64,000 nucleotides of DNA. Source: Spongiibacteraceae bacterium (GTDB lineage Bacteria > Pseudomonadota > Gammaproteobacteria > Pseudomonadales > Dasaniaceae). Location: positions 62,211-126,210 of the forward strand of contig JANQLG010000012.1 in the NCBI GenBank assembly GCA_028280715.1, read 5' to 3'. Both the position numbers and the translations under genes were made by a program. Below, in pieces: positions 7,687 through 50,191 of this stretch. The notes under the pieces were generated by a model that worked only from the letters and a program-made list of their open reading frames with translations, ran no database searches and was not told the DNA's origin. Position 1 is the stretch's first letter; each line of letters opens with the position of its first letter.

Positions 7687-8322
7687 CTATGAACCGTAGG
7701 CTTTTAGAAAAAAATCAACTGACTGTTCAACTAATTGATCAATTTCAGCCTTTGAAACAGTATCAATACCAATCATCATTTTGGTTTTTTTCACTCCACA
7801 CAACAATGCAATAAATTGTAATGCAGCGAGTTCAGCATCGTCGGCATGGCAATGACCGGCGTCAATTTGTTTTTGTAAGTAACTGATAAAATTTTGTTGA
7901 ATCCAGACGGGGCCAGCTTCCCAAAACATTTGCGACACTTCAGGATGCGCCTGCGAGCCTGCCACACACAAACTTTCCAACCGAATAGCCTGCTCACTAA
8001 ATAGCAACTCGCAGAATTCGCACCCCATTTTGGTTAGGGTTTCTCTTAAGGAAAGACCCGACGGAGAAAGAATTTCAGCTGGAGTATGCTCTCTGCAGGC
8101 GCAATTAATGGCCTCCTTGAACAGGGCTTCTTTACTACCAAAATGGCTATATAGCGTCTGTTTGGATACACCCGCCATTTCAGCAATCTCAACCATACTG
8201 GCATTATCGAAACCGGCATGAAGAAATACATTGGCCGCAGCATCCACAATAGCCTGACGACGCTGCTCCTGCTGTTCAGCTCTGGTGGATTTCATAGTAT
8301 TTATTGACGCCGCTTTACTCAC
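7687..8322 (-). CDS. TetR/AcrR family transcriptional regulator
   Basis: N-terminal TetR-type HTH (ASMVEIAEMAGVSKQTLYSHFGSKEALF). Divergent from the MFP-RND efflux operon. Confidence 0.8.
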   Translation of the reverse strand: MSKAASINTMKSTRAEQQEQRRQAIVDAAANVFLHAGFDNASMVEIAEMAGVSKQTLYSHFGSKEALFKEAINCACREHTPAEILSPSGLSLRETLTKMGCEFCELLFSEQAIRLESLCVAGSQAHPEVSQMFWEAGPVWIQQNFISYLQKQIDAGHCHADDAELAALQFIALLCGVKKTKMMIGIDTVSKAEIDQLVEQSVDFFLKAYGS

Positions 8323-8476
8323 TAACTTTGCTCGCTATAAGTGCCTGAATGTAAAGAATTAATGCTCACTCTCTGTTATTGAACAGATGATGTGCACTTT
8401 TGAAGAGCCCTATAGGCTTGATCGCCCAGTGTATATTCATTAGACTAGACCGTCCAGTCCAGCCAGATAAAGATAT

Positions 8477-20350: not shown

Positions 20351-21562
20351 TTAACCCTTAACACACACCACCTGCTTTAACGTGTGAACCACTTCCACCA
20401 GATCAGATTGGTTGGCCATCACCTCATCAATATCTTTGTAAGCGCCAGGAATTTCATCAATAACCTTTGAATCCTTCCTACATTCCACGCCCTTTGTTTG
20501 CTCTAACAAATCAGCACGCTTAAAGACTTTGCGTGCAGCACTGCGACTCATCCTGCGCCCGGCACCGTGAGAGCAACTGCAAAACGCATCCGCATTGCCC
20601 TTGCCTCTGACAATGTAAGAACGTGCGCCCATACTGCCCGGTATAATACCCAACTCGCCTTCTCGTGCACTAATCGCCCCTTTGCGCGTAACAAAAACGT
20701 TCTCGCCAAAATGTGATTCTTTCTGCACATAATTATGGTGGCAATTAATGGCAGTGTTTGTGACACTAAATTTTGGCAATAGTGGCTGGATGGCTCGTAT
20801 CACCAAACCCATCATTTGCTCACGATTGATGCGTGCATATTCCTGAGCCCAATTAACCGCTTCTATATAGTCATCAAAATAATCAGCGCCCTCGGTAAAG
20901 TACGCCAGATCTTTATCGGGCAAATGATGCTGATGCCTGGAAATATCTTTCCGGGCCAGCTGGATAAAATGTCTGCCTATGGCATTGCCAATACCTCGGC
21001 TCCCCGAATGCAGCATGATCCAGACTTGATCACTTTGATCGATACATAATTCGATAAAGTGATTACCACTACCCAAGGTTCCCATTTGTTTAACCCAGGC
21101 TTGCTGAGGCTGCCTCAGCATTTTCAGCAATACCGGGTGTTTTTCAAATAGTCGATCAACACCAGGCGCCAACGTTTGGCACGCCTTGGTTCTGGCAGAA
21201 ACTAATTTATGCGCGCTACTGCCCACTGGTACTGCACGCTCAATAGCTTCGCGAATATTTTTCAAGTTATCCGGCAACTGTGAACTTTTCAACGACAAAC
21301 ACACAGCATTCATACCACAACCGATATCGACACCCACCGCAGCAGGAATAATGGCGGACTTGGTTGGAATCACCGAGCCTACCGTTGCGCCAATGCCAGC
21401 ATGCACATCGGGCATAGCTGCAATATGTGAATGCACGATGGGCAGCTGCGCAATATTTTTTAATTGCGTCAAAGCAAGATTATCAATATCACGAGTATAA
21501 ATCTTTACCGGCTTCACGCCATTTTTTGCATTTTTGTTTAATTCGATTTTAACTGTCATCAC
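20351..21562 (-). CDS. rtcB2: RtcB-family RNA ligase, second paralog (3'-phosphate/5'-OH ligase)
   Basis: 403 aa with RtcB metal/GMP-binding motifs (MPDVHAGIG, GSGNHFIE, CHHNY, SCSHGAGR). Same TLKQVVCVKG C-terminus as the rtcB at 31178. About 50% identical to that copy by eye. Confidence 0.9.
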   Translation of the reverse strand: MMTVKIELNKNAKNGVKPVKIYTRDIDNLALTQLKNIAQLPIVHSHIAAMPDVHAGIGATVGSVIPTKSAIIPAAVGVDIGCGMNAVCLSLKSSQLPDNLKNIREAIERAVPVGSSAHKLVSARTKACQTLAPGVDRLFEKHPVLLKMLRQPQQAWVKQMGTLGSGNHFIELCIDQSDQVWIMLHSGSRGIGNAIGRHFIQLARKDISRHQHHLPDKDLAYFTEGADYFDDYIEAVNWAQEYARINREQMMGLVIRAIQPLLPKFSVTNTAINCHHNYVQKESHFGENVFVTRKGAISAREGELGIIPGSMGARSYIVRGKGNADAFCSCSHGAGRRMSRSAARKVFKRADLLEQTKGVECRKDSKVIDEIPGAYKDIDEVMANQSDLVEVVHTLKQVVCVKG

Positions 21563-21756: not shown

Positions 21757-22701
21757 CTAGGCGGCCATACGAAACCATTGTTGTTTTTTCAATGTTTTTA
21801 ACCGACGCTTGGCCTGTTTATCGCCAGCAATAAAGGAAGGGCCTTCATTGACTGTTTCAAAACAAAACTGCCTTGGCAGTTTGGTATACAGGGAGCGAGG
21901 CGGTTTTGAATAATTAATATGCTTCAATGCCGCACCTGTCTCAAAGCTATGGTAGTAAATTGTATTAATCCCTATTTCTTCTACCAAAAACTTAATAGCT
22001 GCACTCAACATCGCCTCACTCCATAGTGCTTTGTGTCGGTTAATTTCAGATTGCAAATAGGTCATTGCCCTATCGACATAAATATCTAATCCGTAATAGC
22101 AAAAGGCTTTTTCCTTTTCTTTAATTGCCAACTTCATTTCATCGGCCAAATATTCGACTTCGCGCAACCAATCATTCTGAATTTCTTCAATCAGTGCTTC
22201 ACCTGTATTAAAGTCCAGATCAATCCTGGCCCAAGCCAAAGTACTACGCGTATCAGATATAGGATGGGCAAAGAATTTAAACAAATCCAAATCGTTACCA
22301 ATGCAATGACGATAGATCTGATCGTGGCGGTTACAGAAATTCATCTGCAATACCAAGTTAGTACCGGGGCGAGAGGTTTGATAATAGCGATAACGCTTTA
22401 CCCTTTCCCTCCCCCATGTTCCTAAAGTCAAAACATAGGATTCGTAATTTTGTGGCCATAATGTCTCAATATCCTCTGCTCTAAGAACACCACTACCGCA
22501 ACGAGCCAACAACGATGTAAATAAAGGCTTATTCATTAACTTGCCTAACTTACTTTTCTTTAAATCCGCCACCTGGCTAGGTCCATTACGTAGCAAATTG
22601 CGCTGTAATAAATAAGCCGCGTAATAATCCTTATAATAAGTAAATAAGGTCCTATCCTTTGGCAGGCAATCAATAATTTCCTGTGCTAATTTTGCTTGCA
22701 T
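21757..22701 (-). CDS. Hypothetical protein (314 aa), first gene of the rtcB2 operon
   Basis: No recognisable motif. Ends 13 bp before the small basic ORF. Confidence 0.45.
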   Translation of the reverse strand: MQAKLAQEIIDCLPKDRTLFTYYKDYYAAYLLQRNLLRNGPSQVADLKKSKLGKLMNKPLFTSLLARCGSGVLRAEDIETLWPQNYESYVLTLGTWGRERVKRYRYYQTSRPGTNLVLQMNFCNRHDQIYRHCIGNDLDLFKFFAHPISDTRSTLAWARIDLDFNTGEALIEEIQNDWLREVEYLADEMKLAIKEKEKAFCYYGLDIYVDRAMTYLQSEINRHKALWSEAMLSAAIKFLVEEIGINTIYYHSFETGAALKHINYSKPPRSLYTKLPRQFCFETVNEGPSFIAGDKQAKRRLKTLKKQQWFRMAA

Positions 22702-23069: not shown

Positions 23070-23837
23070 TTAATCAATCACCTTTCGAAAAACCTCATCG
23101 TATGCACTTAACTTTACAGCATCACCAACGGGGACCTGTTCAGCTCTGTTTTTAATCGCATCGTAGCAGGACAACATATAATCCTGAATCTCCGGATTGA
23201 TATTTACCTTTGCGCTTTCAGTGAGATGCTGTTTTTCCACTAATAGCTGATCTATTAGTAAACTTATAGAATGACCCTGAAAATATCTATCCTTAAGATA
23301 TTGGAACGGTACAGGAGGGTTGGTATTTTCATCGACAATCCATTGTGCACAAAGTAATGACCTTAACGCATAGAGACAACTCTTGGCGTTATTCCATACC
23401 TTATCATCCTCCAGCTTTTTCTTTGCCATGGACAAATAATGGTAAAAAACTGCCTTGGCATTAAAAGACTGAGCGGCCAACTCCTTGAGCAAGACAACCT
23501 TCGATGTGTCCTGACGATAGACAATGGGAGAATAAAGCCATTCGAACAGTGGCCCATTACCCTTTTTTAGCAAGCGCAAGGACTTACCAATATCCCATCC
23601 ACCCGCATCCAGATCGCCAATGAATACTGTATCGATCACATCGCGTTTTTCAAAGGGCGATAGATACCAATGAGCTGGATGGCAATAGATAAAACGTACA
23701 TCGTAATCGCTGTCTTTAGATGCAAAGCCCCAGGCTCGACTACCTGTCTCAACTGCTAGCAGTATAGTAACGTCATTACTGGTTTCTATTTTCGTCAGCA
23801 AGCTGAGTATTTCTTGTTGTTTATTCACTGGTGTCAA
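23070..23837 (-). CDS. Pol-beta superfamily nucleotidyltransferase (RNA-repair-associated, RlaP-like)
   Basis: GS-x9-DxD signature (VETGSRAWGFASKDSDYDVRF). Overlaps the upstream paralogous NTase by 4 bp. Lies in a cca/rtcB context. Confidence 0.6.
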   Translation of the reverse strand: MTPVNKQQEILSLLTKIETSNDVTILLAVETGSRAWGFASKDSDYDVRFIYCHPAHWYLSPFEKRDVIDTVFIGDLDAGGWDIGKSLRLLKKGNGPLFEWLYSPIVYRQDTSKVVLLKELAAQSFNAKAVFYHYLSMAKKKLEDDKVWNNAKSCLYALRSLLCAQWIVDENTNPPVPFQYLKDRYFQGHSISLLIDQLLVEKQHLTESAKVNINPEIQDYMLSCYDAIKNRAEQVPVGDAVKLSAYDEVFRKVID

Positions 23838-24739
23838 TCGCCTTTAGCACGCAACACTATGGACTCAATTTCTCGCAGGGCTGCAACGGCTTTATCCTCC
23901 GTGACAATGCATGCATCTAATGAACCATAATGCTGCTCTAAACACTCAAGCAATAATGCTTTGATCGCCTGTTTATCGGCTGCCAGCGGCAATTGGCTAT
24001 CCAGGTAAAGTTGTTCCAATTGTTTTTCCTTATCCGCAAAGTAGTCTTCGACTTGTTGCTGCGTCCAATCTCCTCTACGGATCGCTTTTAACTGTTCTTT
24101 GTTTCTTGCTAAATCCAAATCCTGCTCAACCAGGATTTGTTCTATTTCATTCAACAGACGAACAACGTGATAAGCAAATTTCACATCGTAACCAAATTGT
24201 TCAATGATCTTTTGGCGACCACCTTCCGGAACCTTGGTACGCATTTTATGTATTTGCGCATAGGCATAACCTTTAAATCGCGCCCAGCTACCTTTATGTA
24301 GAAAAATATGTCGCTTTTCACGGACACGCTCACCCACTGCCGTGCTATATAGCACGCAGTTTCTAGGTACAAATAATGAATCGATGATATTGGGGTTGTT
24401 ATCCATTAACAGTCGAAAGTATTTAATGACCGAATAGATGGTTAGATCATATTCACGCCCCTTCCCGCCCATGGCTGATTTATCGATCATATGATGTTGC
24501 TGGATTTGTTCAAACATCGGCTCAGTATCATCGAAACCAGGTATCTCTCCACGCAAGTGAGGAAACACCCAATCACGTGGGGGAATCGCAAAACCATAGA
24601 CATCCATATCTGAATGATCTCCAGCGACACCATAGGCTATCGAACCCATCACCACTTCATATTGAACCGCTGTATCCAAAAATTTGGGAGGTGATTTTAA
24701 CAACCCCATTTTTATTAAATGCTGAGTTTTACTGCTCAT
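23834..24739 (-). CDS. Pol-beta superfamily nucleotidyltransferase (second, RlaP-like)
   Basis: MGSIAYGVAGDHSDMDVYGF nucleotidyltransferase motif. Directly downstream of cca. Confidence 0.6.
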   Translation of the reverse strand: MSSKTQHLIKMGLLKSPPKFLDTAVQYEVVMGSIAYGVAGDHSDMDVYGFAIPPRDWVFPHLRGEIPGFDDTEPMFEQIQQHHMIDKSAMGGKGREYDLTIYSVIKYFRLLMDNNPNIIDSLFVPRNCVLYSTAVGERVREKRHIFLHKGSWARFKGYAYAQIHKMRTKVPEGGRQKIIEQFGYDVKFAYHVVRLLNEIEQILVEQDLDLARNKEQLKAIRRGDWTQQQVEDYFADKEKQLEQLYLDSQLPLAADKQAIKALLLECLEQHYGSLDACIVTEDKAVAALREIESIVLRAKGD

Positions 24740-24765: not shown

Positions 24766-26001
24766 TTATACGGCAGAGCGCACACTAGCCATATACTTAG
24801 CTATCGCTGTAATTCTTAAACGCCTTATTTGTTCGGCCAACTTTACACCTTCATAGCCTTGTTCAAGCAACGGTTTAACATCAACATTCTTTGCCTCATC
24901 ACCACAGCGAATCAAAAGCTCGCCATTGGGATAATCTCGATGCTCTAAACCTTTTCTACCTCTAGCATCGGCTTCACAGGCCTGTGCAAAGTAGCGCACT
25001 CTTTCTGGCCTTCGAATACCATCAAGCGATTCCAGCAGACGCATGATCGAGCGCGGTTGCATTTCTAGCATTTTATGACAGCGCAAGTGATTTTTAGTCA
25101 CCTGTATAGCGATATCACGAAAGTCATTAGGCACTTTGTATCGCTCACAAACATGTTCAACCAGGGGAACGCCATTGTCCTCATGCCGAATATGTTTCGG
25201 CCACTCGTCTTCAGGGGTTAACCCTTTACCGAGATCGTGAAGTAAACCTGCCCAGGTGACCACCAGCTCATTATATTTAGATCGCGCCAAATCGATAACG
25301 GCCATCACATGATCCCCGGTATCAATCTCCGGATGATATTGCTCAGGCTGAGGAACACCAAACAAACAATCCACCTCAGGCAACAAAACCTTGAGTGCAC
25401 CACATTGTCTAAGCACAAGAAAAAACTCACTGGGTTTTGGCTCAGTTAATGCCCGAGACATTTCTTTCCAAACACGCTCTGGTGTTAATTCCTCTAATTC
25501 TCCCTCATCGACAAGCTGCTTCATCAATGCCAATGTGTCATCATGAACGGAAAAACCTAACTCTCCATAGCGGGCTGCAAATCTGGCAACCCTTAACACC
25601 CTAAGCGGATCTTCGACAAATGCCTCAGAAACATGGCGCAGTAATTTATTGCCTAAATCATCTCGCCCACCATATGGATCAACATAGCTACCATCTTCTT
25701 TTTTTGCGATGGCATTGATTGTCAGATCCCGGCGGGATAAATCATCTTCTAAGGTCACCTCTGGACCGAAATCACACACAAAGCCCGTATGCCCTTTACC
25801 CGATTTTCTTTCTGTTCTGGCCAGCGCGTATTCATCTTTTGTTTCTGGGTGAAGAAAACAGGGAAAATCATTACCAATTTGTTGGTAACCTAGCGACAAT
25901 AACTCCTCTTGGGTAGAGCCAACAACCACCCAATCTCTATCCGCTACGGGGCGACCAAGCAATTCATCACGGACCGCACCTCCTACTAAATATTTTTCCA
26001 T
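24766..26001 (-). CDS. cca: Multifunctional CCA-adding tRNA nucleotidyltransferase with HD domain
   Basis: Near-collinear with E. coli Cca (YLVGGAVRDELLGRPVADRDWVV...RDLTINA...HD domain LHDLGKG). The ATG at 26001 (MEKYLVGG) is used rather than the ORF-track start at 26019. Confidence 0.9.
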   Translation of the reverse strand: MEKYLVGGAVRDELLGRPVADRDWVVVGSTQEELLSLGYQQIGNDFPCFLHPETKDEYALARTERKSGKGHTGFVCDFGPEVTLEDDLSRRDLTINAIAKKEDGSYVDPYGGRDDLGNKLLRHVSEAFVEDPLRVLRVARFAARYGELGFSVHDDTLALMKQLVDEGELEELTPERVWKEMSRALTEPKPSEFFLVLRQCGALKVLLPEVDCLFGVPQPEQYHPEIDTGDHVMAVIDLARSKYNELVVTWAGLLHDLGKGLTPEDEWPKHIRHEDNGVPLVEHVCERYKVPNDFRDIAIQVTKNHLRCHKMLEMQPRSIMRLLESLDGIRRPERVRYFAQACEADARGRKGLEHRDYPNGELLIRCGDEAKNVDVKPLLEQGYEGVKLAEQIRRLRITAIAKYMASVRSAV

Positions 26002-26016
26002 TAATTCCACCAGTAA

Positions 26017-26055
26017 CAAAAAAAGCGGCTATTTATCTACTAATAAACAGCCGCT
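26017..26055 (-). terminator. Rho-independent terminator after the SPFH gene
   Basis: On the minus strand, AGCGGCT...AGCCGCT forms a 7-bp GC stem plus an extended AU stem, followed by TTTTTTT. It sits between the SPFH stop and the cca start. Confidence 0.55.
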
Positions 26056-26060
26056 TAACT

Positions 26061-27206
26061 TTAATTTGGGGACAATTTAACCAAGTCATTCAAGACACCG
26101 TCAAGACCACCATACACAGAGATCTTGTCGATACGCTCAGTGACTCGCTCCAATGACTCCAACTCTTTAAGCCGCAATAGGGTTGGGTTGTTTTCCATCA
26201 TTTTTGCGGTGTTATGCAATGAACGCATCGCTTGAGTTTCTTCGCGACGCTTGATCAAGTTTGCTTCAGCTTCTTTTTGAGCTTCTACTACCTGATTCAA
26301 AATCACTTTCATATCACCAGGCAAAACGATGTCCTTCACACCCACGCTTTGCAGCACAATACCGTATTCCTTGAATTTATCGCGAACACTTTCCGCAATA
26401 ACAGTATTGAGAGAGTCTTTATCCTCCAATAACTGGTCCAAAGTTTTGGTACCAACCGCTTCTCGCAAACGCAACTGCAGCTCACGATAGATGAAACCTG
26501 CGTAATCACTCAGCTTCAGTGCCACGATTTCTGGGCTATCGATACGATAACTCGCAGATAGATTGATTCGCAAACTGACACGATCCTTAGTCAAAATTTC
26601 TTGACCATTGACCTCTGCTACTTGCAAACGCATATCCAGTAACTTAACAACCACTGAACGATTGTATTTCCAGAAACCATAGCTACCTGGCTCTAAGATT
26701 TTTTCAAGCTTACCATTTACCAATAACAAACCCACATGTTCATCTGGCACTTCGTTGTAGCTAATCGCACGAGCAACTTCTTTACTCGCGCCAATCTTTA
26801 AGCCACGACCCAATAAACCAATTAACTTTTCATCAATTTGGTAATTGGCATCAATATCAATAACGTCGACGCGGACATCTTCAACATCTTTCCAGAATAC
26901 ATATAAAGAGCCTGGTGCCAACACATCCACTAAGTGACGATCTCGATAGATCAAGCCTACTTGAGTATCAGTCAATTCAACACGATCCAAATAGTCTGAA
27001 AGCTTATCAGCATAAGTATTTAGCAAGAATTTGGTATTCTTGTGCTCAAATTCCACAGCAGTGACATCATAGGTTTCAAGTTTTATATCACCACTGATAA
27101 TTTCCACACGGTGACGACCTGGACCTAATACACCAACAAATCGATTACGGCGATACATCAATGCCTTTTGACTATCAGCGATATCAATTGTTTTCCATAG
27201 CAACAT
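26061..27206 (-). CDS. Cytoplasmic SPFH/band-7 (slipin-like) domain protein
   Basis: 381 aa with no N-terminal TM. SPFH core plus a C-terminal coiled coil (EAQKEAEANLIKRREE). Confidence 0.7.
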   Translation of the reverse strand: MLLWKTIDIADSQKALMYRRNRFVGVLGPGRHRVEIISGDIKLETYDVTAVEFEHKNTKFLLNTYADKLSDYLDRVELTDTQVGLIYRDRHLVDVLAPGSLYVFWKDVEDVRVDVIDIDANYQIDEKLIGLLGRGLKIGASKEVARAISYNEVPDEHVGLLLVNGKLEKILEPGSYGFWKYNRSVVVKLLDMRLQVAEVNGQEILTKDRVSLRINLSASYRIDSPEIVALKLSDYAGFIYRELQLRLREAVGTKTLDQLLEDKDSLNTVIAESVRDKFKEYGIVLQSVGVKDIVLPGDMKVILNQVVEAQKEAEANLIKRREETQAMRSLHNTAKMMENNPTLLRLKELESLERVTERIDKISVYGGLDGVLNDLVKLSPN

Positions 27207-27570
27207 AATATTACTCCTTCTATTACAAACTTAATAAGGCGAGGCTCACCCAGGATCAACGAGGTTATTGATTTGCATACTTTAGGCAAAGAACAACAGC
27301 GGCTTGCTGCGTAATGATTCAAAGCATTTCCTAAGTTAAAAACTCTTCCTTAAACCGAGCTTTTACAATCATTACGGGTCAAACATGTTGTCTCCGCGTA
27401 AAGCATGAACCCATCAACAACGGCGATGATGCCGGCGTTTCAAACGTTGATAAACCTCATCAACGATTAAAACTATGAGCCTCTAACAGATTTTTATGCA
27501 AGGACCTGAACCTTGTGGGGACTCGAACCCCTAGTCTCTCGACTATACCAAGAGTCGTTTTTCAGACGAC

Positions 27571-27646
27571 GGTTACTTTGACAGGAATCGAACCTGCGGC
27601 CTATCGATTATGAGTCGACTGCTCTACCCAACTGAGCTACAAAGTA
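27571..27646 (-). tRNA. tRNA-Met/Ile2 (anticodon CAT), AU-rich acceptor stem
   Basis: Cloverleaf read by eye: acceptor UACUUUG/CAAAGUA, D-arm GCUC-AGUUGGGUA-GAGC, anticodon loop CUCAUAA, T-arm GCAGG-UUCGAUU-CCUGU, discriminator A, followed by CC. Confidence 0.75.
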
Positions 27647-27772: not shown

Positions 27773-28336
27773 TTAAGCAGCAAGCCAACATCTTTGCCCA
27801 CTAAAACGGGCTTTTAAGTATTCCATCTGATCACCACGAATCTGGCGATTATCCAGATACATAAATTCAAAAATATTCGGCGCAAAAGGAATGGCTAATA
27901 ATTCCATACCTGCTTGTTCTGGAGTACGACCACCTTTATGGTGATTGCACCGTTCACATGCAGCGACAACATTGGTCCAACAATCCTTACCACCTTGTAC
28001 ACGTGGCACAATGTGATCACGCGTTAACTGCCTGTTATCGAATTCCATTCCACAATACATACAACGTTGACCATCACGCCGAAACAACATCCTGTTAGTT
28101 AGCAGTGGTTCGAAGTTTTGTTTTCCAACATCACCACTGCAGGCAATGATCGGAGCTAGTTGCAAACTTGACTGCAAGCCTTCGCGGTTTACTCCACCAA
28201 AGATCCATAATGACTCAGAACCAAGACTCCAAATCACTTGCTCTTTTACATACATAGTGGCCGCTTCTTGACGGGTTACCCAAGCTTGAGGAACCCCTGA
28301 CTTATTCAATTTCAAAATGCGAGTTTGCTCTTTCAT
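27773..28336 (-). CDS. HNH endonuclease
   Basis: C-terminal HNH motif (CMYCG...LTRDHIVPRVQGG...CERCNHHKG). Embedded between the tRNA array and tRNA-Met. Confidence 0.85.
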   Translation of the reverse strand: MKEQTRILKLNKSGVPQAWVTRQEAATMYVKEQVIWSLGSESLWIFGGVNREGLQSSLQLAPIIACSGDVGKQNFEPLLTNRMLFRRDGQRCMYCGMEFDNRQLTRDHIVPRVQGGKDCWTNVVAACERCNHHKGGRTPEQAGMELLAIPFAPNIFEFMYLDNRQIRGDQMEYLKARFSGQRCWLAA

Positions 28337-28414
28337 ACTCCTACCTCTACTTCATCACTTTCACTCTCACAAATAAAGATGCACTTCCCCTGTGCGACTT
28401 ATCATCCGTAAGCT

Positions 28415-28492
28415 GGTACCCAAGGTGAGAGTCGAACTCACAAAATCAACAGATTCTAAATCTGCACGCTTTGCCAATTTGCGTACCTGGGT
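28415..28492 (-). tRNA. Atypical class-I tRNA with anticodon TAG (Leu-like D-arm and anticodon loop, no long variable arm)
   Basis: ACCCAGG-UA-CGC-AAAUUGGCAAA-GCG-U-GCAGA-UUUAGAA-UCUGU-UGAUUUU-GUGAG-UUCGACU-CUCAC-CUUGGGU-A-CCA. D-arm and anticodon loop resemble tRNA-Leu(UAG), but the variable region is only 7 nt. Confidence 0.55.
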
Positions 28493-28539
28493 AAATTTTG
28501 TGTGCACACATCCCTTGTGCTTGTCTTTCATCCTTAAAC

Positions 28540-28614
28540 TGGTTGGGGCAATGGGAATCGAACCCACCTCCGCCGGATTAAAAGTCCGGTGCACAACCGC
28601 TATGCCATACCCCA
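28540..28614 (-). tRNA. tRNA-Lys (anticodon TTT) with Gln-like U1-A72 body
   Basis: UGGGGUA.../...UGCCCCA-A-CCA acceptor. Anticodon arm CCGGA-CUUUUAA-UCCGG. T-loop UUCGAUU. Confidence 0.65.
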
Positions 28615-28630
28615 TCTTTCGAAAATAAAT

Positions 28631-28708
28631 TGGTCAGAGTGGTAGGACTCGAACCTACGACCCCCTCCATCCAAAGGAGGTGCGCTAACCAGACTGCGCT
28701 ACACTCTG
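28631..28708 (-). tRNA. tRNA-Pro (anticodon TGG)
   Basis: CAGAGUG-UAGCGCAGUCUGGUUAGCGC-A-CCUCC-UUUGGAU-GGAGG...GGUUCGAGUCC...CACUCUG-A-CCA. Confidence 0.8.
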
Positions 28709-28723
28709 AAAATCTTTTTACTA

Positions 28724-28798
28724 TGGAGTGCGCAACTGGAATCGAACCAGTGAAAACGGAAGTTGCAGTTCCGCGCATTACCTCTCTGCCACACGCAC
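28724..28798 (-). tRNA. tRNA-Cys (anticodon GCA)
   Basis: Anticodon arm CGGAA-CUGCAAC-UUCCG. Discriminator U73 then CCA. T-loop UUCGAUU. Confidence 0.75.
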
Positions 28799-28817
28799 TT
28801 TTTGCTCATTGTAAAAG

Positions 28818-28891
28818 TGGCTACGGTGTCCGGACTCGAACCGGAATCCTCGGAGTCAAAGTCCAATGCGTTACCATTTCGCCACACCGCA
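28818..28891 (-). tRNA. tRNA-Gln (anticodon TTG)
   Basis: U1-A72 start, discriminator G73 and CCA encoded. Anticodon arm UUGGA-CUUUGAC-UCCGA. T-arm UCCGG-UUCGAGU-CCGGA. Confidence 0.75.
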
Positions 28892-28901
28892 AAAAATTTG
28901 G

Positions 28902-28972
28902 GGTGATGCCGGGAATTGAACCCTGGTCTCCTGGTCCACAGCCAGGCGCTCTACCACTGAGCTAACATCACC
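28902..28972 (-). tRNA. tRNA-His (anticodon GTG), CCA not encoded
   Basis: GGUGAUG acceptor. D-arm GCUC-AGUGGUA-GAGC. Anticodon arm CCUGG-CUGUGGA-CCAGG. One mismatch in the T-stem. C73 is followed by CAA. Confidence 0.7.
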
Positions 28973-28978
28973 ACAATT

Positions 28979-29062
28979 TGGTGGGGAGGGAGTCGAACCC
29001 CCAAAGCTTTCGCGACGCGTTTACAGCGCGCTAGAGTTGCCACATCTCTTCTGTGCCTCCCC
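28979..29062 (-). tRNA. tRNA-Tyr (anticodon GTA), class II with long variable arm
   Basis: Anticodon loop CUGUAAA is identical to E. coli tRNA-Tyr. 3' end is ...UUCGACU-CCCUCCCC-A-CCA. The T-arm/acceptor register could not be resolved cleanly by eye. Confidence 0.55.
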
Positions 29063-29068
29063 GCTATT

Positions 29069-29143
29069 TGGCTGGCCTGGTAGGGGTCGAACCTACGATT
29101 CTCCGGTTAACAGCCGGACGCTTTACCACTCAGCTACAGACCA
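29069..29143 (-). tRNA. tRNA-Asn (anticodon GTT)
   Basis: UGGUCUG.../CAGGCCA-G-CCA. Anticodon arm UCCGG-CUGUUAA-CCGGA. T-arm GUAGG-UUCGACC-CCUAC. U1-A72 is normal for tRNA-Asn. Confidence 0.8.
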
Positions 29144-29235
29144 ACAATTTTTAAGCGACCACATTGTTAAAAAACAGCTACCGTGTTGGCGGGTAGCGCA
29201 CCATGTCATTCAAAAAAATTCTACCGTAAAAAAAC

Positions 29236-29269
29236 AAAACCCCGGCTGGGTTCACCAACCGGGGTTTTT
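29236..29269. terminator. Bidirectional rho-independent terminator between rtcA and the tRNA array
   Basis: AAAACCCCGGCTGG-GTTCA-CCAACCGGGGTTTTT. GC-rich 9-10 bp stem flanked by A/T runs on both sides. Confidence 0.6.
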
Positions 29270-29506
29270 GATTACAAACTCCACTCCGGTTGGCACTAGC
29301 CTCCCGGAATTTCCAAAAGACTAGATTTTCGTTTTTTCACCTACAGACATCACTAGGTGACTTACATTTTTATTAGGCAGACTTTGCCCCTGCTTGCGAC
29401 ACTGCAAACATAAAAACCTTTCATTTATTGACAAATCTTTTGTCGTTTTCCTAAATAAATGGCATATCAAATTAACGATTACCTCTACGCAAAAATTTAC
29501 AGACAT

Positions 29507-29550
29507 AAAAAAACCCGATAGATATTTTTCAAAAATACCTACCGGGTTTT
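29507..29550. terminator. Second hairpin with flanking A/T runs (possible terminator)
   Basis: AAAAAAACCCGATAG...CTACCGGGTTTT. Imperfect stem with a large loop. Confidence 0.3.
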
Positions 29551-29859
29551 AAACTTGTTTAAAGCTATTCAACCTGGAAGGCATAAGTGCCTTCCAAAAA
29601 GAAAGACACTGCTACCGATTATTCTCCACATGCGTGAGTGGGTTAATAACCATACGAATGCTATAACAGCACTGCATTAGGTTTTGTTGACCAAAAAATT
29701 TACTCATTACTTTTACTATTCGTTTTGCTTTATTTAAATCTTAATGAAAAATTAAAAAATTATTTCCATCAATTTAGTTGCAGCAATAATAGTATTCAAA
29801 ATTTCAAAGTCAACAAATTATTTATGAAAATATATACTTTATTAAAAAATTTATATTTT

Positions 29860-30885
29860 CTAAACACAAACCTCCCATACACCTTTTTCAATTTCACTCA
29901 ATTGAATATCAATATTCATTAACTGACTTATAATACTAATGTTAGTTAACAGGTGTTGACTTGGTTTTAGCGTTCGAAAAATACCACCCACACCCAATAC
30001 CATTGGCAACAACAACTGATCTGCCAGATATTCTCCTACACTAACATCAACTTTAAGGTAGCGTTTTACTTCTCGAATCGCCTTTTTTGCCACTCGCTCA
30101 GCACTAACACCATGCTCACCTACAACTTCTACCACTTCACTGACGTTTTCACTACACAAACGCAGTGAGAGAATATTGCCAGGACCTTGAGAACGTACAA
30201 GCTGTTGCTTAAGTGTCGACGCTGGCCACAACCCAATACGCCTAACTTGATCAAGTTCTCGTTCAGTAATATGCTCTGGTAAACACGCCGAAGTCGCAAC
30301 GGCTAAACGTGAAACTTCACGGCCACGTTCAACCAAATTTAGCCTTGTGGTTTTCTGCACTGGATAAATTCTTACACGCCAGGCACCACCGCCAGCAGGA
30401 TAAAAACCATAACGTTGTAACTCGACATCAGCCCGATAGCCCATTTGTGCAATAGCTGGCAAAAAACACTCAGCAATAAAATCAAAGCTAGGCGCAAATC
30501 CGTTATGTGTGCCACCTTCGAGATAAATTTCACTCACCTCTTTAGCGAATAACAGTGGCATATATACTGTTTGGAAAACCAAACTGGTACTGCCAGCTGA
30601 ACCCACTGAGAATCGGTATTCTCCAGCTTTAATCATCCCTGGCCTAAAAGTAACTTCCCTAGAACCCAATTCATCACCGGTTATTTCTGCATCGCAAATC
30701 ATTTGCGCAGCTCGTAGGCAAGTTAAGTGCTGCCGCAGCAAACCAGGCTTGGAACGACCTGCACGAATATTTTGTATTCGCACCGATTTTCCTAAACACA
30801 TTGCCAGGGTCAATGACGTTCGAAATATCTGTCCGCCACCCTCTCCTAATGAACCATCTATTACAATCACACTATTTTTCCTCAT
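29860..30885 (-). CDS. rtcA: RNA 3'-terminal phosphate cyclase
   Basis: Collinear with E. coli RtcA (IDGSLGEGGGQIFRTSLTLA...RAGRSKPGLLRQHL...FYPAGGG...GEYLADQLLLPM). Start taken at the ATG at 30885 (MRKNSV). The ORF-track TTG extension translates the upstream tRNA-like element. Confidence 0.9.
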   Translation of the reverse strand: MRKNSVIVIDGSLGEGGGQIFRTSLTLAMCLGKSVRIQNIRAGRSKPGLLRQHLTCLRAAQMICDAEITGDELGSREVTFRPGMIKAGEYRFSVGSAGSTSLVFQTVYMPLLFAKEVSEIYLEGGTHNGFAPSFDFIAECFLPAIAQMGYRADVELQRYGFYPAGGGAWRVRIYPVQKTTRLNLVERGREVSRLAVATSACLPEHITERELDQVRRIGLWPASTLKQQLVRSQGPGNILSLRLCSENVSEVVEVVGEHGVSAERVAKKAIREVKRYLKVDVSVGEYLADQLLLPMVLGVGGIFRTLKPSQHLLTNISIISQLMNIDIQLSEIEKGVWEVCV

Positions 30886-31177
30886 GTTTATTTGGTGGAC
30901 GTGACGGGATTCGAACCCGCGTATAACAACAACCAAGGCATTACTCTTGGTCAGTCATAGACTTGGAAACGCGCGCCAGCTGACACCCGCATTAGAGCAT
31001 CGAGCCTGCATCCTCAACCGTACATCTATCACTGATTACGTTGCCACCAGTTTTACCCGGCTACCTTCATGCTAATCATTTTAGGTAGTGACACTCCCTA
31101 CGCATCAGCACACCCTATAATCTCAAACAAATAGTGCCGTCCCTTGGCACTATCCCTTGGTACAATGAAACATCCCT
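30886..31177 (-). ncRNA. Candidate structured ncRNA in the rtcB-rtcA spacer, ending in a tRNA-like T-arm/acceptor/ACCA module (Y-RNA/YrlA-like?)
   Basis: The 292 nt between rtcB stop and rtcA start has no convincing ORF. The minus-strand 3' end reads ...GCGGG-UUCGAAU-CCCGU-CACGUCC-A-CCA and sits immediately before the rtcA ATG. An anticodon-like hairpin ACCAAG-AGUAAUGC-CUUGGU lies just upstream. A distal GGGUGUG (about 230 nt upstream) could pair with the CACGUCC acceptor strand. Confidence 0.35.
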
Positions 31178-32404
31178 TTACCCTTTTACACACACCACTT
31201 GTTTTAAGGTGTACACGATTTCCACTAAATCCTGTTGCGCCTCCATCACTTTATCGATGGGCTTGTACGCAGCCGGTGTTTCATCAATCACACCTTTGTC
31301 TTTTCGGCACTCAACATCCGCTGTTGCCTGAAGGTGCTCTTCCAAAGACACCATTTTTTTTGCTTTAGTGCGCGACATCACGCGACCTGCACCATGGCTA
31401 CAACTACAGAAGCTTTCTTCGTTGCCAAGTCCGCGAACAATGTAAGACCGAGCTCCCATGCTTCCGGGGATAATACCCATTTCACCTTCGCGAGCGCGTA
31501 CCGCACCTTTGCGTGTAACCAACACATCTTTTCCATAGTGGTGCTCGCGAGACACATAATTATGATGACAGTTCACCGCTTCCATCCGCGCCTCAAAGAT
31601 CATCCCTAATTCTTCGGTAACCGCTGCGATAACACGAGCCATCATTACTTCTCGGTTAATACGTGCAAAATTTTGTGCCCATTCCACCGCTTCGACATAC
31701 TCATCAAAATGTTCAGTACCTTCTGGCAAGTAAGACAGGTCACTATCAGGCAAATGAATATGCCAACGCTCCATATCTTTCTTAGCCACTTCAATAAAGT
31801 GCGTACCAATGCAGTTACCAACACCACGTGAGCCGCTATGCAACATAAACCATACTCGACCATACTCATCCAAACACACTTCGATAAAGTGGTTGCCAGT
31901 ACCTAAAGTACCCAGATGGTTAATGTTGTTGGTATTTTTCAATACCGGATGTTTATCTACTAACACATCAAATTGTGCTGACAGCGGCATCCAGGCTTTC
32001 ATCACATCATCAGGGACATTACACCACGCACCTTTATCCCGCTTACCGCGCAAACGCCTTGAACGACCATGCGGTACTGCTTTTTCAATCGCATCACGAA
32101 TACCGGCCAAGCTATCAGGCAACTGCTCCGCGGTCAGGCTGGTTCGCACCGCCATCATCCCGCAGCCGATATCTACTCCAACGGCTGCAGGAATCACCGC
32201 ACCTAATGTAGGAACGACGCTGCCAATTGTTGCACCCTTGCCAAGGTGGACATCCGGCATTGCCGCCACCCATTGATGAATAAAGGGCATTCGCGAAATA
32301 TTCTTTAATTGCTCTTTAGCATCTTCTTCAAAAGGAACGCCTCGGGTCCAAGTTTTGATAGGTACACCACCGTCTTGCATTACTTCATAGCGCTCTTGAG
32401 TCAT
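31178..32404 (-). CDS. rtcB: RNA-splicing ligase RtcB
   Basis: 408 aa with canonical RtcB motifs (MPDVHLGKG, GTGNHFIE, CHHNY, SCSHGAGR). Divergent from rtcR. Confidence 0.95.
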   Translation of the reverse strand: MTQERYEVMQDGGVPIKTWTRGVPFEEDAKEQLKNISRMPFIHQWVAAMPDVHLGKGATIGSVVPTLGAVIPAAVGVDIGCGMMAVRTSLTAEQLPDSLAGIRDAIEKAVPHGRSRRLRGKRDKGAWCNVPDDVMKAWMPLSAQFDVLVDKHPVLKNTNNINHLGTLGTGNHFIEVCLDEYGRVWFMLHSGSRGVGNCIGTHFIEVAKKDMERWHIHLPDSDLSYLPEGTEHFDEYVEAVEWAQNFARINREVMMARVIAAVTEELGMIFEARMEAVNCHHNYVSREHHYGKDVLVTRKGAVRAREGEMGIIPGSMGARSYIVRGLGNEESFCSCSHGAGRVMSRTKAKKMVSLEEHLQATADVECRKDKGVIDETPAAYKPIDKVMEAQQDLVEIVYTLKQVVCVKG

Positions 32405-32469: not shown

Positions 32470-32486
32470 TTGCGAAGGCAGTGCCA
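32470..32486 (-). promoter_or_regulatory. Sigma54-type promoter (-24 TGGCAC, -12 TCGCA) upstream of rtcB
   Basis: The minus strand reads TGGCAC-TGCCT-TCGCAA about 65 nt upstream of the rtcB start. Matches the GG-N10-GC consensus expected for RtcR-dependent rtcBA transcription. Confidence 0.5.
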
Positions 32487-32631: not shown

Positions 32632-34224
32632 ATGAAAACCGTAGCGATCAGCATTCTAGGTACCACTATGGACCGTCGTGGTAAGGGCGAAAAACGCTGG
32701 GACAAATGGCGCCCCACCATTTCCATGTGCCAACACGATGACCTATTGATTGATCGTCTGGAACTGCTATTCGACAACCACTCGCAGAGCCTGGCTGAGC
32801 AAGTCAAAGAGGATATCGCCCGCGTCTCTCCAGAAACCGAAGTGATTTATCACCACGTCAACTTTCATGACCCCTGGGATTTTGAAACGGTCTATGGCGA
32901 ATTGCTCGACTTTGCACGAGGCTATTCTTTTAAACCAAGTAAAGAGCGCTACCTAACACACATCACAACCGGCACCCACGTTGCTCAAATCTGCTTGTAT
33001 CTGTTGACCGAAGCTGGCTACCTGCCAGGCCAATTAATCCAAACATCCCCGGCACCTAGAAACAGTAATGTAGCAGGCCAATATCAAATTATTGATCTGG
33101 ACTTATCCAAGTACGATCAAATTGCGTCGCGCTTTAAAAAGGAGCACTTTGAAGGCACCACTTACTTAAAGGGAGGAATAAAAACCAATAACAAAGCCTT
33201 TAACCAAATGATCGAGCAATTGGAGCAGGTATCGATTCGCTCAAGTGAGCCGATTCTTTTAACTGGCCCCACCGGCGCCGGCAAATCACAACTGGCCCAA
33301 CGGATTTATTCACTAAAAAAACAGCGCGGCCTAATCAGCGGTAATTTGGTCGTCGTCAACTGTGCGACCTTAAAAGGTGAGAATGCCATGTCTGCGTTAT
33401 TTGGCCATAAGAAAGGCGCCTTTACCGGTGCAACAACCGATAGAGCAGGCCTGCTTCGCGAAGCCGATGGCGGCATGTTATTTCTGGATGAAATTGGAGA
33501 ACTTGGTACGGACGAGCAAGCCATGCTGCTACGCGCAATAGAAGATAAAAAATTTATGCCATTCGGCGCTGACAAAGAAACCACCAGCAATTTCTTATTA
33601 ATCGCTGGTACTAATCGCGATTTGAGCGGTCAAGCTCAACGGGGAGAATTCCGCGAGGATTTACACGCCCGCATTGATTTGTGGACCTATCGACTACCTT
33701 CACTTTCAGAAAGGATGGAGGACTTCGAACCAAATCTCGATTATGAACTGGAGAATTACTCCACCAAAACCGGTTATCTCATCAGCTTTAACAAAGATGC
33801 CAGAAAAAAATACCTGCAGTTCGCAACATCGACAGAAGCCACATGGTCAGCCAATTTTCGGGACCTCAATGCCAGCATTACACGCATGGCAACCCTGGCC
33901 AATGGCGGTAGGATTACTGTAAGCGTCGTTAATGAAGAAATTGACCGACTGCAACACAAGTGGCAATCGACAAGCAATAAAAGCCACACCAATGACACAA
34001 CATTACTCAAATCCATTCTCGGTGAAAACAAGATTAAGTCACTGGACTTATACGAGCAGATGACACTAGCACCGGTATTAAAAATTTGTCAAAGCGCCAA
34101 CTCTATGGCCGAAGCAGGAAGAATCCTCTTCAATGTGAGCCGGGAGCAGAAAAAATCCAATAACGACTCACATCGGATAAAACAGATCCTGGATAAACAC
34201 CAGATTAAGTTTGGCGACCTATGA
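32632..34224 (+). CDS. rtcR: Sigma54-dependent transcriptional activator RtcR (CARF-AAA+-HTH)
   Basis: N-terminus collinear with E. coli RtcR (KTVAISILGTTMDRRGKGEKRWDKWRPT...HITTGTHVAQICLYLL). Central AAA+ sigma54-interaction domain (LLTGPTGAGKS...GAFTGA...LFLDEIGEL). Confidence 0.9.
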   Translation: MKTVAISILGTTMDRRGKGEKRWDKWRPTISMCQHDDLLIDRLELLFDNHSQSLAEQVKEDIARVSPETEVIYHHVNFHDPWDFETVYGELLDFARGYSFKPSKERYLTHITTGTHVAQICLYLLTEAGYLPGQLIQTSPAPRNSNVAGQYQIIDLDLSKYDQIASRFKKEHFEGTTYLKGGIKTNNKAFNQMIEQLEQVSIRSSEPILLTGPTGAGKSQLAQRIYSLKKQRGLISGNLVVVNCATLKGENAMSALFGHKKGAFTGATTDRAGLLREADGGMLFLDEIGELGTDEQAMLLRAIEDKKFMPFGADKETTSNFLLIAGTNRDLSGQAQRGEFREDLHARIDLWTYRLPSLSERMEDFEPNLDYELENYSTKTGYLISFNKDARKKYLQFATSTEATWSANFRDLNASITRMATLANGGRITVSVVNEEIDRLQHKWQSTSNKSHTNDTTLLKSILGENKIKSLDLYEQMTLAPVLKICQSANSMAEAGRILFNVSREQKKSNNDSHRIKQILDKHQIKFGDL

Positions 34225-39545: not shown

Positions 39546-40121
39546 TTATAGGCGCCCATAACTTCTCCTTAGCAAAGTGGTCTTGGTGGCAATGGCACCA
39601 CATACCACACCTGCCACCACACCGAATAGATGTGACTCAAAGGACACGCCAGTTTGTATTGGCAAAATCCCATAAATCATTCCGCCATAAAAGAAGATGA
39701 CAAATAGGGCAATGGCAATATTTTTAAAACTGCGATCAAACCAGGCGATAGTAATGGATAAACTCCATAGACCAAATATCCATCCGCTAGCACCAATATG
39801 ACTGGCTTCTCTGCCAAATAACCAGACCAGTATGCCGGTTACTAAGATAATGATCAGACTGCTGATAAGGTAGAAGCTGACCGGCCGCACTAAACAGATA
39901 GCACTAAAAATACTTAAGCCAATGATGTTATTGATTAAGTGCCAATAGCTGCCATGGATAAATGGCGCAGTAATGATGTGGTACCAGTTTTCCGGTGAAC
40001 GAGGAATAATGCCGTATTGATTAAATTGTCCATCCAGTATGATATTGAAAATGTGGATAATACTGATCAACATTACCACACAGGTAATAACTCGTACTCT
40101 TAACCACAAAGAGCTCGTCAT
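39546..40121 (-). CDS. Rhomboid-family intramembrane serine protease
   Basis: 6-TM core with the GASGWIFGL (GxSG) catalytic motif and a downstream His. Start overlaps the stop of the giant AAA gene. Confidence 0.8.
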   Translation of the reverse strand: MTSSLWLRVRVITCVVMLISIIHIFNIILDGQFNQYGIIPRSPENWYHIITAPFIHGSYWHLINNIIGLSIFSAICLVRPVSFYLISSLIIILVTGILVWLFGREASHIGASGWIFGLWSLSITIAWFDRSFKNIAIALFVIFFYGGMIYGILPIQTGVSFESHLFGVVAGVVCGAIATKTTLLRRSYGRL

Positions 40122-50115: not shown

Positions 50116-50191
50116 TGGTCGGGACGGCAGGATTTGAACCTACGACCACCACACCCCCAGTGTGGTGCGCTACCAGACTGCGCTACGCCCC
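50116..50191 (-). tRNA. tRNA-Pro (anticodon GGG)
   Basis: CGGGGCG-UA-GCGC-AGUCUGGUA-GCGC-A-CCACA-CUGGGGG-UGUGG...GGUUCAAAUCC...CGUCCCG-A-CCA. Canonical cloverleaf. Confidence 0.85.

Follow-up and report, generated by a model that had tools for sequence, protein, structure and literature searches.

In this study, we analyzed a 64,000-nucleotide (nt) stretch of DNA from a Spongiibacteraceae bacterium (contig JANQLG010000012.1; hereafter, the window) and found that the segment of its minus strand between 28414 and 29143 is an accessory tRNA array of the phage type, linked to an HNH endonuclease gene and comprising seven structurally sound tRNA genes. Array and HNH gene form a cassette that lies within an RNA-repair locus, and homologous cassettes recur in the corresponding loci of other bacteria. 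We propose, with a probability of roughly 0.55, that this phage-type cassette was horizontally acquired into a repair super-operon and would provide expressed and charged reserve tRNAs during tRNA damage.

ARAGORN called nine tRNA genes in the window, seven of which fall within the array, and the same nine were matched by the Rfam tRNA model (RF00005) with 50-71 bits and E-values of 1e-7 to 1e-13 in a search of the whole window. The seven array genes alone reached E-values of 1e-7 to 1e-12 over 64 kb, which is far beyond chance, and their scores (50-68 bits) were comparable to that of the housekeeping tRNA-Pro(GGG) of the window. These genes and the adjoining HNH gene are as follows, with compared sequences denoted by L numbers here and below.

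29069-29143, minus strand: tRNA-Asn(GUU), the first gene of the array, with U1-A72, G73 and an encoded CCA (ARAGORN; Rfam, 68.1 bits)
28979-29062, minus strand: decayed tRNA-Tyr(GUA)-like gene, a probable pseudogene (alignment to the Tyr-gta gene of L035)
28899-28972, minus strand: tRNA-His(GUG), with G-1, C73 and an encoded CCA (ARAGORN; Rfam, 55.4 bits)
28818-28891, minus strand: tRNA-Gln(UUG) (ARAGORN; Rfam, 62.7 bits)
28724-28798, minus strand: tRNA-Cys(GCA), with U73 (ARAGORN; Rfam, 57.0 bits)
28631-28708, minus strand: tRNA-Pro(UGG) (ARAGORN; Rfam, 66.6 bits)
28540-28614, minus strand: tRNA-Lys(UUU), with U1-A72 and A73 (ARAGORN; Rfam, 62.9 bits)
28414-28492, minus strand: tRNA-Leu(UAG), class-I-like (ARAGORN; Rfam, 50.1 bits)
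27773-28336, minus strand: HNH (HNH_5) endonuclease (Pfam and PHROGs)
50116-50192: housekeeping tRNA-Pro(GGG), outside the array (ARAGORN; Rfam, 62.9 bits)

Seven called genes of mixed isotype and one decayed gene are thus packed into 730 bp of one strand. The initial annotation, made by eye, had counted eight tRNA genes with spacers of 6-47 nt; the spacers agreed with the ARAGORN and Rfam coordinates, and seven of the genes were recovered by both programs, whereas Tyr-GTA lacks 4 nt and was called by neither. The acceptor stems of the array tRNAs are richer in A/U than that of the housekeeping tRNA-Pro(GGG). Their anticodon loops have the canonical 7 nt and look ordinary for their isoacceptors, and the identity elements A73 (Lys and Leu), U73 (Cys) and G-1:C73 (His) are present. 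With the decayed gene included, the array counts 8 genes, compared with 1-15 in relatives and up to 36 in viral relatives.

The HNH gene lies on the same strand, 77 nt downstream of the last tRNA gene (Pfam HNH_5/HNH, E = 1.7e-17), and its product is presumed to be the homing endonuclease of the cassette. Jumbo phages encode homologs with 42% identity, and in Salicola phage SCTP-2 the homolog sits within an array of nine tRNAs that carries no annotation. In IMG/VR, relatives of the protein are encoded by at least 565 viral stretches; the counts given here for viral arrays refer to the best 80 of these (L074-L153). tRNA genes were found within 5 kb of the HNH gene in 65 of the 80 contigs, and 59 carried three or more, all on the strand of the HNH gene; the distance to a tRNA was at most 400 nt in 48/80, and the largest array held 36 tRNAs. 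When the tRNAs of the window were compared with those of the viral arrays, the same isotype was the closest for Leu, Lys, Pro, Cys and His (73-85% similarity, with 76% for Leu-TAG and 85% for Pro), while Gln and Asn tied with other isotypes. A megablast search of the region against phages returned a single tRNA match, 87% to the tRNA-Pro of Ralstonia phage RSL1. Among the best 80 metagenome relatives of the HNH protein (L154-L233; 45-56% identity), 6 were encoded beside tRNAs and 1 beside repair genes. Since these relatives are mostly located away from tRNAs, the family is broad, with only some of its branches tied to arrays.

Several array members are unusual. tRNA-Leu(UAG) is 79 nt long and combines a variable region of 7-8 nt with a 3-bp D-stem of the class II/Leu type, A73 and an encoded CCA. 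ARAGORN and the Rfam alignment both confirmed the short variable region, and the class I fold first read by eye had been correctly registered. The LeuRS (leucyl-tRNA synthetase) of Escherichia coli is not known to need the long variable arm. L001 (three isoacceptors) and L029 likewise have Leu tRNAs that are short and carry a Leu-type D-arm. The Leu-CAA of L042, located 9 kb from band7, measures 87 nt and looks like an ordinary class II tRNA. The lengths of the Leu-anticodon tRNAs in the viral arrays (n = 105) are bimodal, with 43 at 76-79 nt and 62 at 81-89 nt, and the short ones carry the anticodons UAG, UAA, CAA, AAG and GAG. Therefore, class-I-like tRNA-Leu seems to be widespread in phage arrays; the short arm of the tRNA stands, but not its uniqueness, and such a tRNA had already been described (PMC6582537).

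The U1-A72 pair noted by eye in tRNA-Lys was likewise present. In contrast, the Gln-like origin suggested for this tRNA is unsupported because its closest relatives are Lys tRNAs from other arrays (91% in L003 and 81% in L001) and from phage arrays (79%); no Gln tRNA was among the closest sequences, and we rejected a derivation from Gln on this similarity. Among eight array orthologs of tRNA-Lys, pairing amounts to 98.2% and 14 of the 21 pairs have undergone compensatory changes; seven of the eight share the anticodon loop CUUUUAA. This covariation around a near-invariant loop is consistent with a functional decoder under purifying selection.

The T-stem mismatch reported for tRNA-His is an A50:G64 opposition, and nucleotide 66 is absent (one deletion in the Rfam alignment); both features are shared with the 97%-identical ortholog in L008. 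The same tRNA had been thought to lack an encoded CCA. However, the landmarks U8-A9-G10 set its first G as G-1, so the 3′ end reads CAC-C73-CCA and the CCA is encoded; the register without CCA was rejected. In L003, the corresponding gene seems to be split into a 5′ part of 44 nt (4863-4906; 97.7% identical to the window) and a 3′ part of 25 nt (5000-5024), which are separated by about 93 nt instead of 13, and ARAGORN did not call it. It is either a decaying gene or the site of an inserted element.

The tRNA-Tyr-like element was missed by ARAGORN at default settings and by the Rfam tRNA model. Its best Rfam match was tRNA-Sec (19.6 bits, E = 1.5), and a relaxed ARAGORN search misregistered it as 'Pyl-cta'. 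It is 78% identical to the intact Tyr-gta gene of L035 (Candidatus Endobugula sertula), with which it shares an unusual D region. Relative to that gene, the 3′ acceptor strand (CCCTC-CCC-ACCA) has a 4-nt gap, and the 5′ strand GGGGAGG would need a full CCTCCCC partner. Because these 4 nt are missing, the T-stem and the acceptor stem cannot both form. The anticodon arm, a short variable hairpin and the T-loop are intact, and the minimum free energy fold is not a cloverleaf. Judged by this alignment, the element is a probable pseudogene that reflects a slippage deletion or a sequencing error.

The cassette is embedded in an RNA-repair locus next to cca, as the initial annotation had stated, and Pfam searches identified RtcR, RtcB, RtcA, Band-7, CCA-adding enzyme, two RlaP proteins and a second RtcB around it. 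On the minus strand, the order is rtcB-rtcA, the cassette (array-HNH), and b7a-tRNA-band7-cca-rlaP-rlaP-orf-rtcB2, in which b7a denotes a Band-7-associated tRNA-like gene and orf an open reading frame (ORF). About 700 nt of noncoding DNA separate rtcA from the array.

32632-34224, plus strand: RtcR regulator with an RtcR/CARF N-domain and a sigma-54 AAA+ domain, divergent from rtcB (Pfam)
32472-32486, minus strand: sigma-54-type promoter-like element TGGCACTGCCTTCGC, with 1 mismatch to TGGCAC-N5-TTGC
31178-32404, minus strand: RtcB RNA ligase (RtcB1; Pfam)
29860-30936, minus strand: RtcA RNA 3′-phosphate cyclase (Pfam)
27571-27646, minus strand: b7a-tRNA, called 'Met-cat' by ARAGORN, with the CCA not fully encoded (Rfam, 71.4 bits)
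26061-27206, minus strand: SPFH/Band-7 protein (Pfam; 66 homologous loci)
24766-26019, minus strand: CCA-adding enzyme (cca) with an HD domain (Pfam and PHROGs)
23834-24739 and 23070-23837, minus strand: two RlaP nucleotidyltransferases (Pfam)
21757-22701, minus strand: ORF of 314 aa without a Pfam, NCBIfam or PHROG match
20351-21562, minus strand: RtcB2 ligase (Pfam), with orthologs of 60-63% identity

The Pfam E-values were 7.4e-85 for RtcR, 1.2e-46 for Sigma54_activat, 1.6e-133 for RtcB and 4e-76 for RTC. The element TGGCACTGCCTTCGC sits 68-82 nt upstream of rtcB; matches of this quality are common by chance, and it is the position that suggests a function. The orthologs of RtcB2 occur in array/Band-7 loci such as L001, L010, L035, L048 and others. 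The enzyme encoded by cca is an ordinary 'multifunctional CCA addition/repair protein', and relatives have the gene in the same locus. Judged by its homologs, the window derives from a Cellvibrionaceae-like gammaproteobacterium.

To place the cassette among its relatives, we used an alignment scan for Band-7 proteins with one genome per species, which yielded 66 loci, 59 of them distinct. The closest relative by Band-7 (L006, 84%) has the order rtcB-rtcA-b7a-band7 and lacks both the array and the HNH gene, and its similarity to the window restarts 42 nt past the HNH stop codon. Since the closest relative was found without them, the cassette is probably an insertion between rtcA and the b7a/Band-7 module. 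Homologous cassettes are present in the rtc/Band-7 loci of Cellvibrionaceae, Microbulbifer, Agarilytica, Ketobacter and Ca. Endobugula, where they take three positions: between rtcA and b7a (the window, L003 and L008); downstream of rtcR (L029, L030, L032, L039 and probably L024, which has no HNH gene within the stretch examined); and, in a larger version, around an RtcB2-type ligase (L001, L010 and L035). The HNH gene is always at or near the downstream end of the array in these cassettes, and in three Halieaceae loci (L025, L026 and L028) it stands alone, directly upstream of b7a. The array content differs among the window, L003, L008, L001, L029 and others, and the orthologous tRNAs are 93% (Asn, in L003 and L008), 97% (His, L008), 89% (Gln, L003), 91% (Lys, L003), 83% (Cys, L010) and 78% (Pro) identical to those of the window. 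About 10 of the 59 distinct Band-7 loci, with three architectures, have an array within 10 kb, and we estimated the chance expectation under random placement in genomes of about 4.5 Mb at about 0.4% per array. The patchy presence, the variable content and the three positions point to a horizontally acquired cassette of the mobile element type. The initial view of a compact, mixed-identity array with odd tRNAs, typical of phages and mobile elements, is thus borne out by the adjoining HNH gene, the kinship with viral arrays and the closest relative without an array. We found no earlier description of such a cassette inside the RtcR/RtcBA/Band-7 operons of gammaproteobacteria.

The noncoding DNA between rtcA and the array contains two putative regulatory units.

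29505-29621, minus strand: hairpin followed by a second strong intrinsic terminator (terminator at 29510-29550), between rtcA and the array
29228-29330, minus strand: hairpin and intrinsic terminator (stem at 29236-29268), immediately upstream of tRNA-Asn, with a fold z of -5.85

A sigma-70-like promoter lies upstream of each unit (29786-29813 and 29407-29434), and both units gave weak matches to the Rfam His_leader family (E = 0.01 and 0.04); they are possibly an attenuator or small RNAs. The proximal unit is similar in L003 (4648-4768), where it stops only about 20 nt before tRNA-Asn, and, in its upstream part, in L008 (about 8300-8420). The segment upstream of the proximal terminator reads TAGTC..GGAAAT..CCGG.AGGCT. 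From these three sequences, the proximal unit could be an attenuator or leader of the array. The TAG before the hairpin is shared: in L003 and L008 it closes an ATG-TAG start-stop, and in the window it closes an ORF of 9 codons; a leader-peptide attenuator, which would lack a convincing Shine-Dalgarno sequence and is drawn from three sequences only, is speculation.

Overall, we provide a putative mechanism for the cassette. The HNH endonuclease would spread or maintain the cassette by homing. The array would be transcribed as one precursor, either from its own promoter or by read-through of the conserved hairpin-terminator leader, and RNase P and 3′ processing would release the tRNAs for charging by the host synthetases. 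The additional Lys, Asn, His and Gln (and Tyr) acceptors, which belong to the isoacceptors that anticodon nucleases preferentially attack, would then sustain translation while RtcB, RtcA, RlaP and the CCA-adding enzyme repair the damaged tRNAs, so that a 'replace' arm would operate beside a 'repair' arm. The repeated linkage of cassettes to the repair locus suggests such a spare-tRNA role. Additionally, the ten rtc-linked arrays are small and biased in content (Lys-UUU, 9/10; Asn, 8/10; His, 6/10; Gln, 5/10), and none contains Asp, Ile or Val, which are as common as Lys or Asn in viral arrays. In simulations against the pool of viral arrays, the enrichment had a P of <5e-5 for Lys and of about 5e-4 for Asn, with related arrays taken as independent. 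Among known anticodon nucleases, PrrC/RloC and PARIS target tRNA-Lys; colicin E5 targets the tRNAs for Tyr, His, Asn and Asp; and gamma-toxin-type nucleases target those for Gln, Lys and Glu.

Several observations weigh against this proposal. Cassettes decay, as seen in the Tyr pseudogene here and the apparently split tRNA-His of L003, and they are absent from most Band-7 loci, as would be expected for a dispensable or selfish element. Co-transcription under RtcR cannot be taken for granted, given the two strong terminators that separate the array from rtcA, and because the cassette follows rtcR rather than rtcBA in several relatives, any regulatory coupling is not conserved. The P values for the isotypes are too optimistic, since the rtc-linked arrays are not independent of one another. 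The ordinary anticodon loops imply that the tRNAs would add supply rather than resist cleavage; read by eye, they gave no sign of nuclease-escape mutations like those of T5 (cf. PMC10264068). Finally, the selection on the array tRNAs could have acted in a phage reservoir and not in this host.

We also considered, more tentatively, that such cassettes were repeatedly and selectively recruited to Rtc/Band-7 loci as a 'replace' module, with the leader gating expression in translational distress. Cells would in this way couple the repair of cleaved tRNAs by ligases to the induced synthesis of a reserve set, biased toward the isoacceptors under attack by anticodon nucleases (Lys-UUU, Asn, His, Gln and Tyr). 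By analogy, this module would be the cellular counterpart of the spare tRNAs that phages carry against tRNA-cleaving defences. We regard this extension as possible but doubtful.

The b7a-tRNA that follows the cassette differs from the array tRNAs. It had been described as a tRNA-Met with an acceptor stem made entirely of A/U pairs. However, the stem (TACTTTG/CAAAGTA) has five A/U pairs of seven, and the gene is not an odd methionine tRNA of the array but the separately conserved b7a-tRNA. Nearly all of the 66 Band-7 loci have a single tRNA-like gene on the same strand, 180-470 nt upstream of band7 (593 nt once). The name b7a-tRNA (Band-7-associated) goes back to Burroughs & Aravind 2016, as cited in bioRxiv 10.1101/312249, which states that it was without experimental validation at that time. 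Across 58 distinct sequences, pairing in the cloverleaf reaches 95.7%, and 18 of its 21 pairs have changed on both sides; these values were attained by 0 of 500 shuffles. In contrast, the anticodon loop is 4-9 nt long, departs from 7 nt in 20 of the 58 sequences and contains 16 'anticodons', many beginning with A; three Microbulbifer loci (L020, L022 and L023) share identical bodies and have the loops TAGTT, TCGTT and AGGTT. The CCA is mostly not encoded. Because the loop is hypervariable and often not of 7 nt, b7a is not a decoder; it is a conserved, non-decoding, tRNA-shaped RNA of the repair operon, outside the array. The variation suggests a loop that is either unconstrained or under diversifying selection, for example as bait for anticodon nucleases.

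The proposed reserve role has to be weighed against other explanations. The cassette might be purely selfish, an HNH element that repeatedly lands near b7a or other tRNA-like DNA, drags phage tRNAs along and decays without any gain for the host. The patchy distribution, with no cassette in the closest relative and in most Band-7 loci, would fit this view, as would the solitary HNH genes directly upstream of b7a in L025, L026 and L028, the variable array content and the pseudogenisation mentioned above. Moreover, the homing endonuclease SegB of T4 cuts in tRNA genes and promotes the transfer of the neighbouring array (cited in PMC8421152). However, the cassettes downstream of rtcR (L029, L030, L032, L039 and probably L024) lie several kb from b7a, and homing next to b7a therefore cannot explain all sites. 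The metagenome relatives of the HNH protein are mostly not beside tRNAs, and hence the family has no obligatory tRNA target. Furthermore, orthologous tRNAs have retained perfect cloverleaves as well as their anticodon loops despite numerous compensatory changes, and the retained subset of isotypes is nonrandom relative to viral arrays. We consider a purely selfish cassette plausible, though less likely than the reserve role.

We found it improbable that the array serves as a decoy or signal, in which its tRNAs would be less decoders than toxin sponges or a source of 2′,3′-cyclic-phosphate halves that activate the CARF domain of RtcR. Activation of RtcR by damaged tRNA halves has been reported (PMC7790460; PMC10159003), a sponge role was raised for the operonic tRNAs of Anabaena (PMC8421152), and the hypervariable loop of b7a indicates that non-decoding tRNA-shaped RNAs function in this locus. 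Nevertheless, the array tRNAs keep canonical 7-nt loops, anticodons, identity elements and encoded CCA, which argues for selection for decoding, and a sponge needs no such diverse set of isotypes. A prophage remnant, of which the tRNA region and the HNH gene would be the last surviving part, is very improbable and was rejected. Although the HNH and tRNA types are phage-like, no phage structural, integrase or replication genes are nearby, no att sites were seen, and the flanking genes are repair and housekeeping genes, with rtcA and b7a/band7 directly at the borders. The window is chromosomal, as shown by thrS and pheT; no phage megablast match extended beyond one tRNA; and other genera carry the same small cassette in this operon. 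An ordinary housekeeping tRNA operon that adjoins the rtc genes by chance is scarcely credible. Its Rfam scores resemble that of a housekeeping tRNA and the CCA is encoded, as is expected of gammaproteobacterial tRNA genes. We rejected this explanation nonetheless, as the closest relative and most related loci have no array at this position, an HNH gene is attached, the Tyr gene is defective, the Leu tRNA has no long variable arm, in contrast to the 87-nt Leu-CAA of L042, and the acceptor stems contain more A/U than the stem of tRNA-Pro(GGG) in the window. A Y RNA (YrlA) was likewise rejected, as the only matches to the Rfam YrlA model were below threshold (20.2 and 16 bits compared with a gathering score of 69).

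The kind of element and the short tRNA-Leu are not new, because mycobacterial, cyanobacterial and phage precedents have been published. HNH-linked, horizontally transferred tRNA clusters are known from mycobacteria and from the plasmids and phages of these bacteria (Morgado & Vicente 2018, PMC5966550; Behra et al. 2019, PMC6582537). Of the protein genes in the mycobacterial arrays, that for HNH is the most widespread, and genes for translation rescue, such as one encoding an RF-1-domain protein, occur in some of these arrays (PMC5966550); their tRNA-Leu(TAG) has a short variable loop and their tRNA-His is irregular (PMC6582537). These clusters resemble the array described here in being dense, on one strand and of mixed isotypes, with an HNH gene inside or beside them and a patchy distribution that suggests horizontal transfer; that the tRNAs are structurally unlike the housekeeping copies is a feature of the mycobacterial clusters. 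They differ in belonging to another phylum and in size (11-37 genes compared with 8 here), and no RtcR/RtcBA/Band-7 operon setting has been described for them.

Translational stress induces the trn operon (L-array) of Anabaena PCC 7120 along with rtcB and the HNH gene (Santamaria-Gomez et al. 2021, PMC8421152). In this operon, 23 of 26 tRNAs are aminoacylated and some are pseudogenes; the tRNAs were proposed to act as a backup or as a sponge when tRNAs are cleaved (PMC8421152). L-arrays are likewise accessory tRNA operons with a linked HNH gene and neighbourhoods rich in RNA-processing genes, including rtcB. In contrast to the window, they contain up to 43 genes, have HNH upstream rather than downstream, and involve neither Band-7 nor b7a-tRNA. 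Regulation in Anabaena depends on direct repeats that overlap the promoter and not on RtcR/sigma-54, and rtcB is unlinked there; in a later paper, the repressor has been given the name TrcR (PMC10272220).

Another parallel is provided by phage tRNA clusters with homing endonucleases, as in T4 with SegB, and by phage tRNAs directed against tRNA-cleaving defences, such as those of T5 (van den Berg 2023, PMC10264068; Burman 2024, PMC11464382; Azam 2024, PMC11555353). Phage tRNA-Lys and tRNA-Tyr were reported to rescue infection from such defences (PMC10264068, PMC11464382, PMC11555353), and loop mutations in T5 tRNAs allow evasion of the nucleases (PMC10264068). The HNH family of the window occurs in the tRNA arrays of a jumbo phage and of many viral contigs. 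However, the cassette studied here is chromosomal and belongs to a cellular repair operon, where it would protect the cell instead of a phage, and its anticodon loops, read by eye, have no evident escape mutations. Closest in setting are the Rtc operons with Band-7 and b7a-tRNA (Burroughs & Aravind 2016, as cited in bioRxiv 10.1101/312249), which share with the window an rtcR divergent from rtcB-rtcA, RlaP, and a tRNA-like gene preceding band7, with the tRNA-shaped noncoding RNA as a presumed cofactor. As far as the available text of these descriptions goes, published Rtc operons, including rsr-yrlBA-rtcBA of Salmonella (Hughes 2020, PMC7790460), have one tRNA-like RNA (b7a-tRNA or YrlA), whereas a decoding array of several tRNAs with an HNH gene is present here and does not appear in them. 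The recurrent embedding in Rtc/Band-7 repair loci, combined with the biased isotypes, offers a testable case of 'repair plus replace', which we regard as less likely than not.

A further structured region follows b7a-tRNA in the window.

27237-27570, minus strand: structured region between b7a-tRNA and band7, with the helix GAGGCUCA (27476-27483)/UGAGCCUC (about 27242-27249)

It is present in 43 of the 59 distinct Band-7 loci and has no Rfam match. Its elements are a hairpin (GTCGT...ACGAC), a TGGnAA motif with a GNRA-capped hairpin (20 different stem sequences) and a second T-arm mimic (about 27517-27545), the stem of which varies among GGGG/CCCC, GAGG/CCTC, CAGG/CCTG and others, and which is followed by another hairpin. 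A long-range 8-nt helix, GAGGCCCA/TGGGCCTC, has covarying variants, including the form found in the window, and encloses about 230-250 nt that end just before the ribosome-binding site of band7. The region could belong to an extended b7a RNA or represent a structured 5′ untranslated region.

The repair locus itself varies among relatives. At about 12.6-16 kb, L001, L002 and L003 contain a divergent RtcB that is 27% identical to the RtcB2 of the window, an RF-1-domain gene and a conserved ORF of about 236-320 aa from no known family. We take the RF-1-domain gene to encode the PrfH release-factor homolog of a ribosome-repair pair (PMC9304027). Neither the RF-1-domain gene nor its RtcB is present in the window, which retains the family-less ORF (21757-22701) beside a different RtcB2. 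In L003 (16349-21242), the repair locus including cca adjoins rpoD-dnaG-yqeY-rpsU, a neighbourhood that we presume to resemble the surroundings of cca in Pseudomonas. If this likeness holds, the repair genes may have accreted around a housekeeping cca in the lineage of L003. Elsewhere in the window (40121-45448, minus strand), a protein of 1775 aa combines DUF3686 ('ATPase involved in DNA repair') with DUF7902 and AAA domains, and the ORF after it (649 aa) has no family match; both appear unrelated to the array.

The locus, which comprises RtcR, two RtcB, RtcA, two RlaP, a CCA-adding enzyme, Band-7, b7a-tRNA and the array, is a compact natural test system, and the variable-arm-less tRNA-Leu that is widespread in such arrays is a natural experiment on recognition by LeuRS. 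If the proposed role is true, repair islands would combine two strategies, repairing and replacing cleaved tRNAs, and phage-derived arrays would have been domesticated for cellular defence against ribotoxins. This would also provide a testable function for the accessory tRNA arrays of bacteria, which have long been puzzling.

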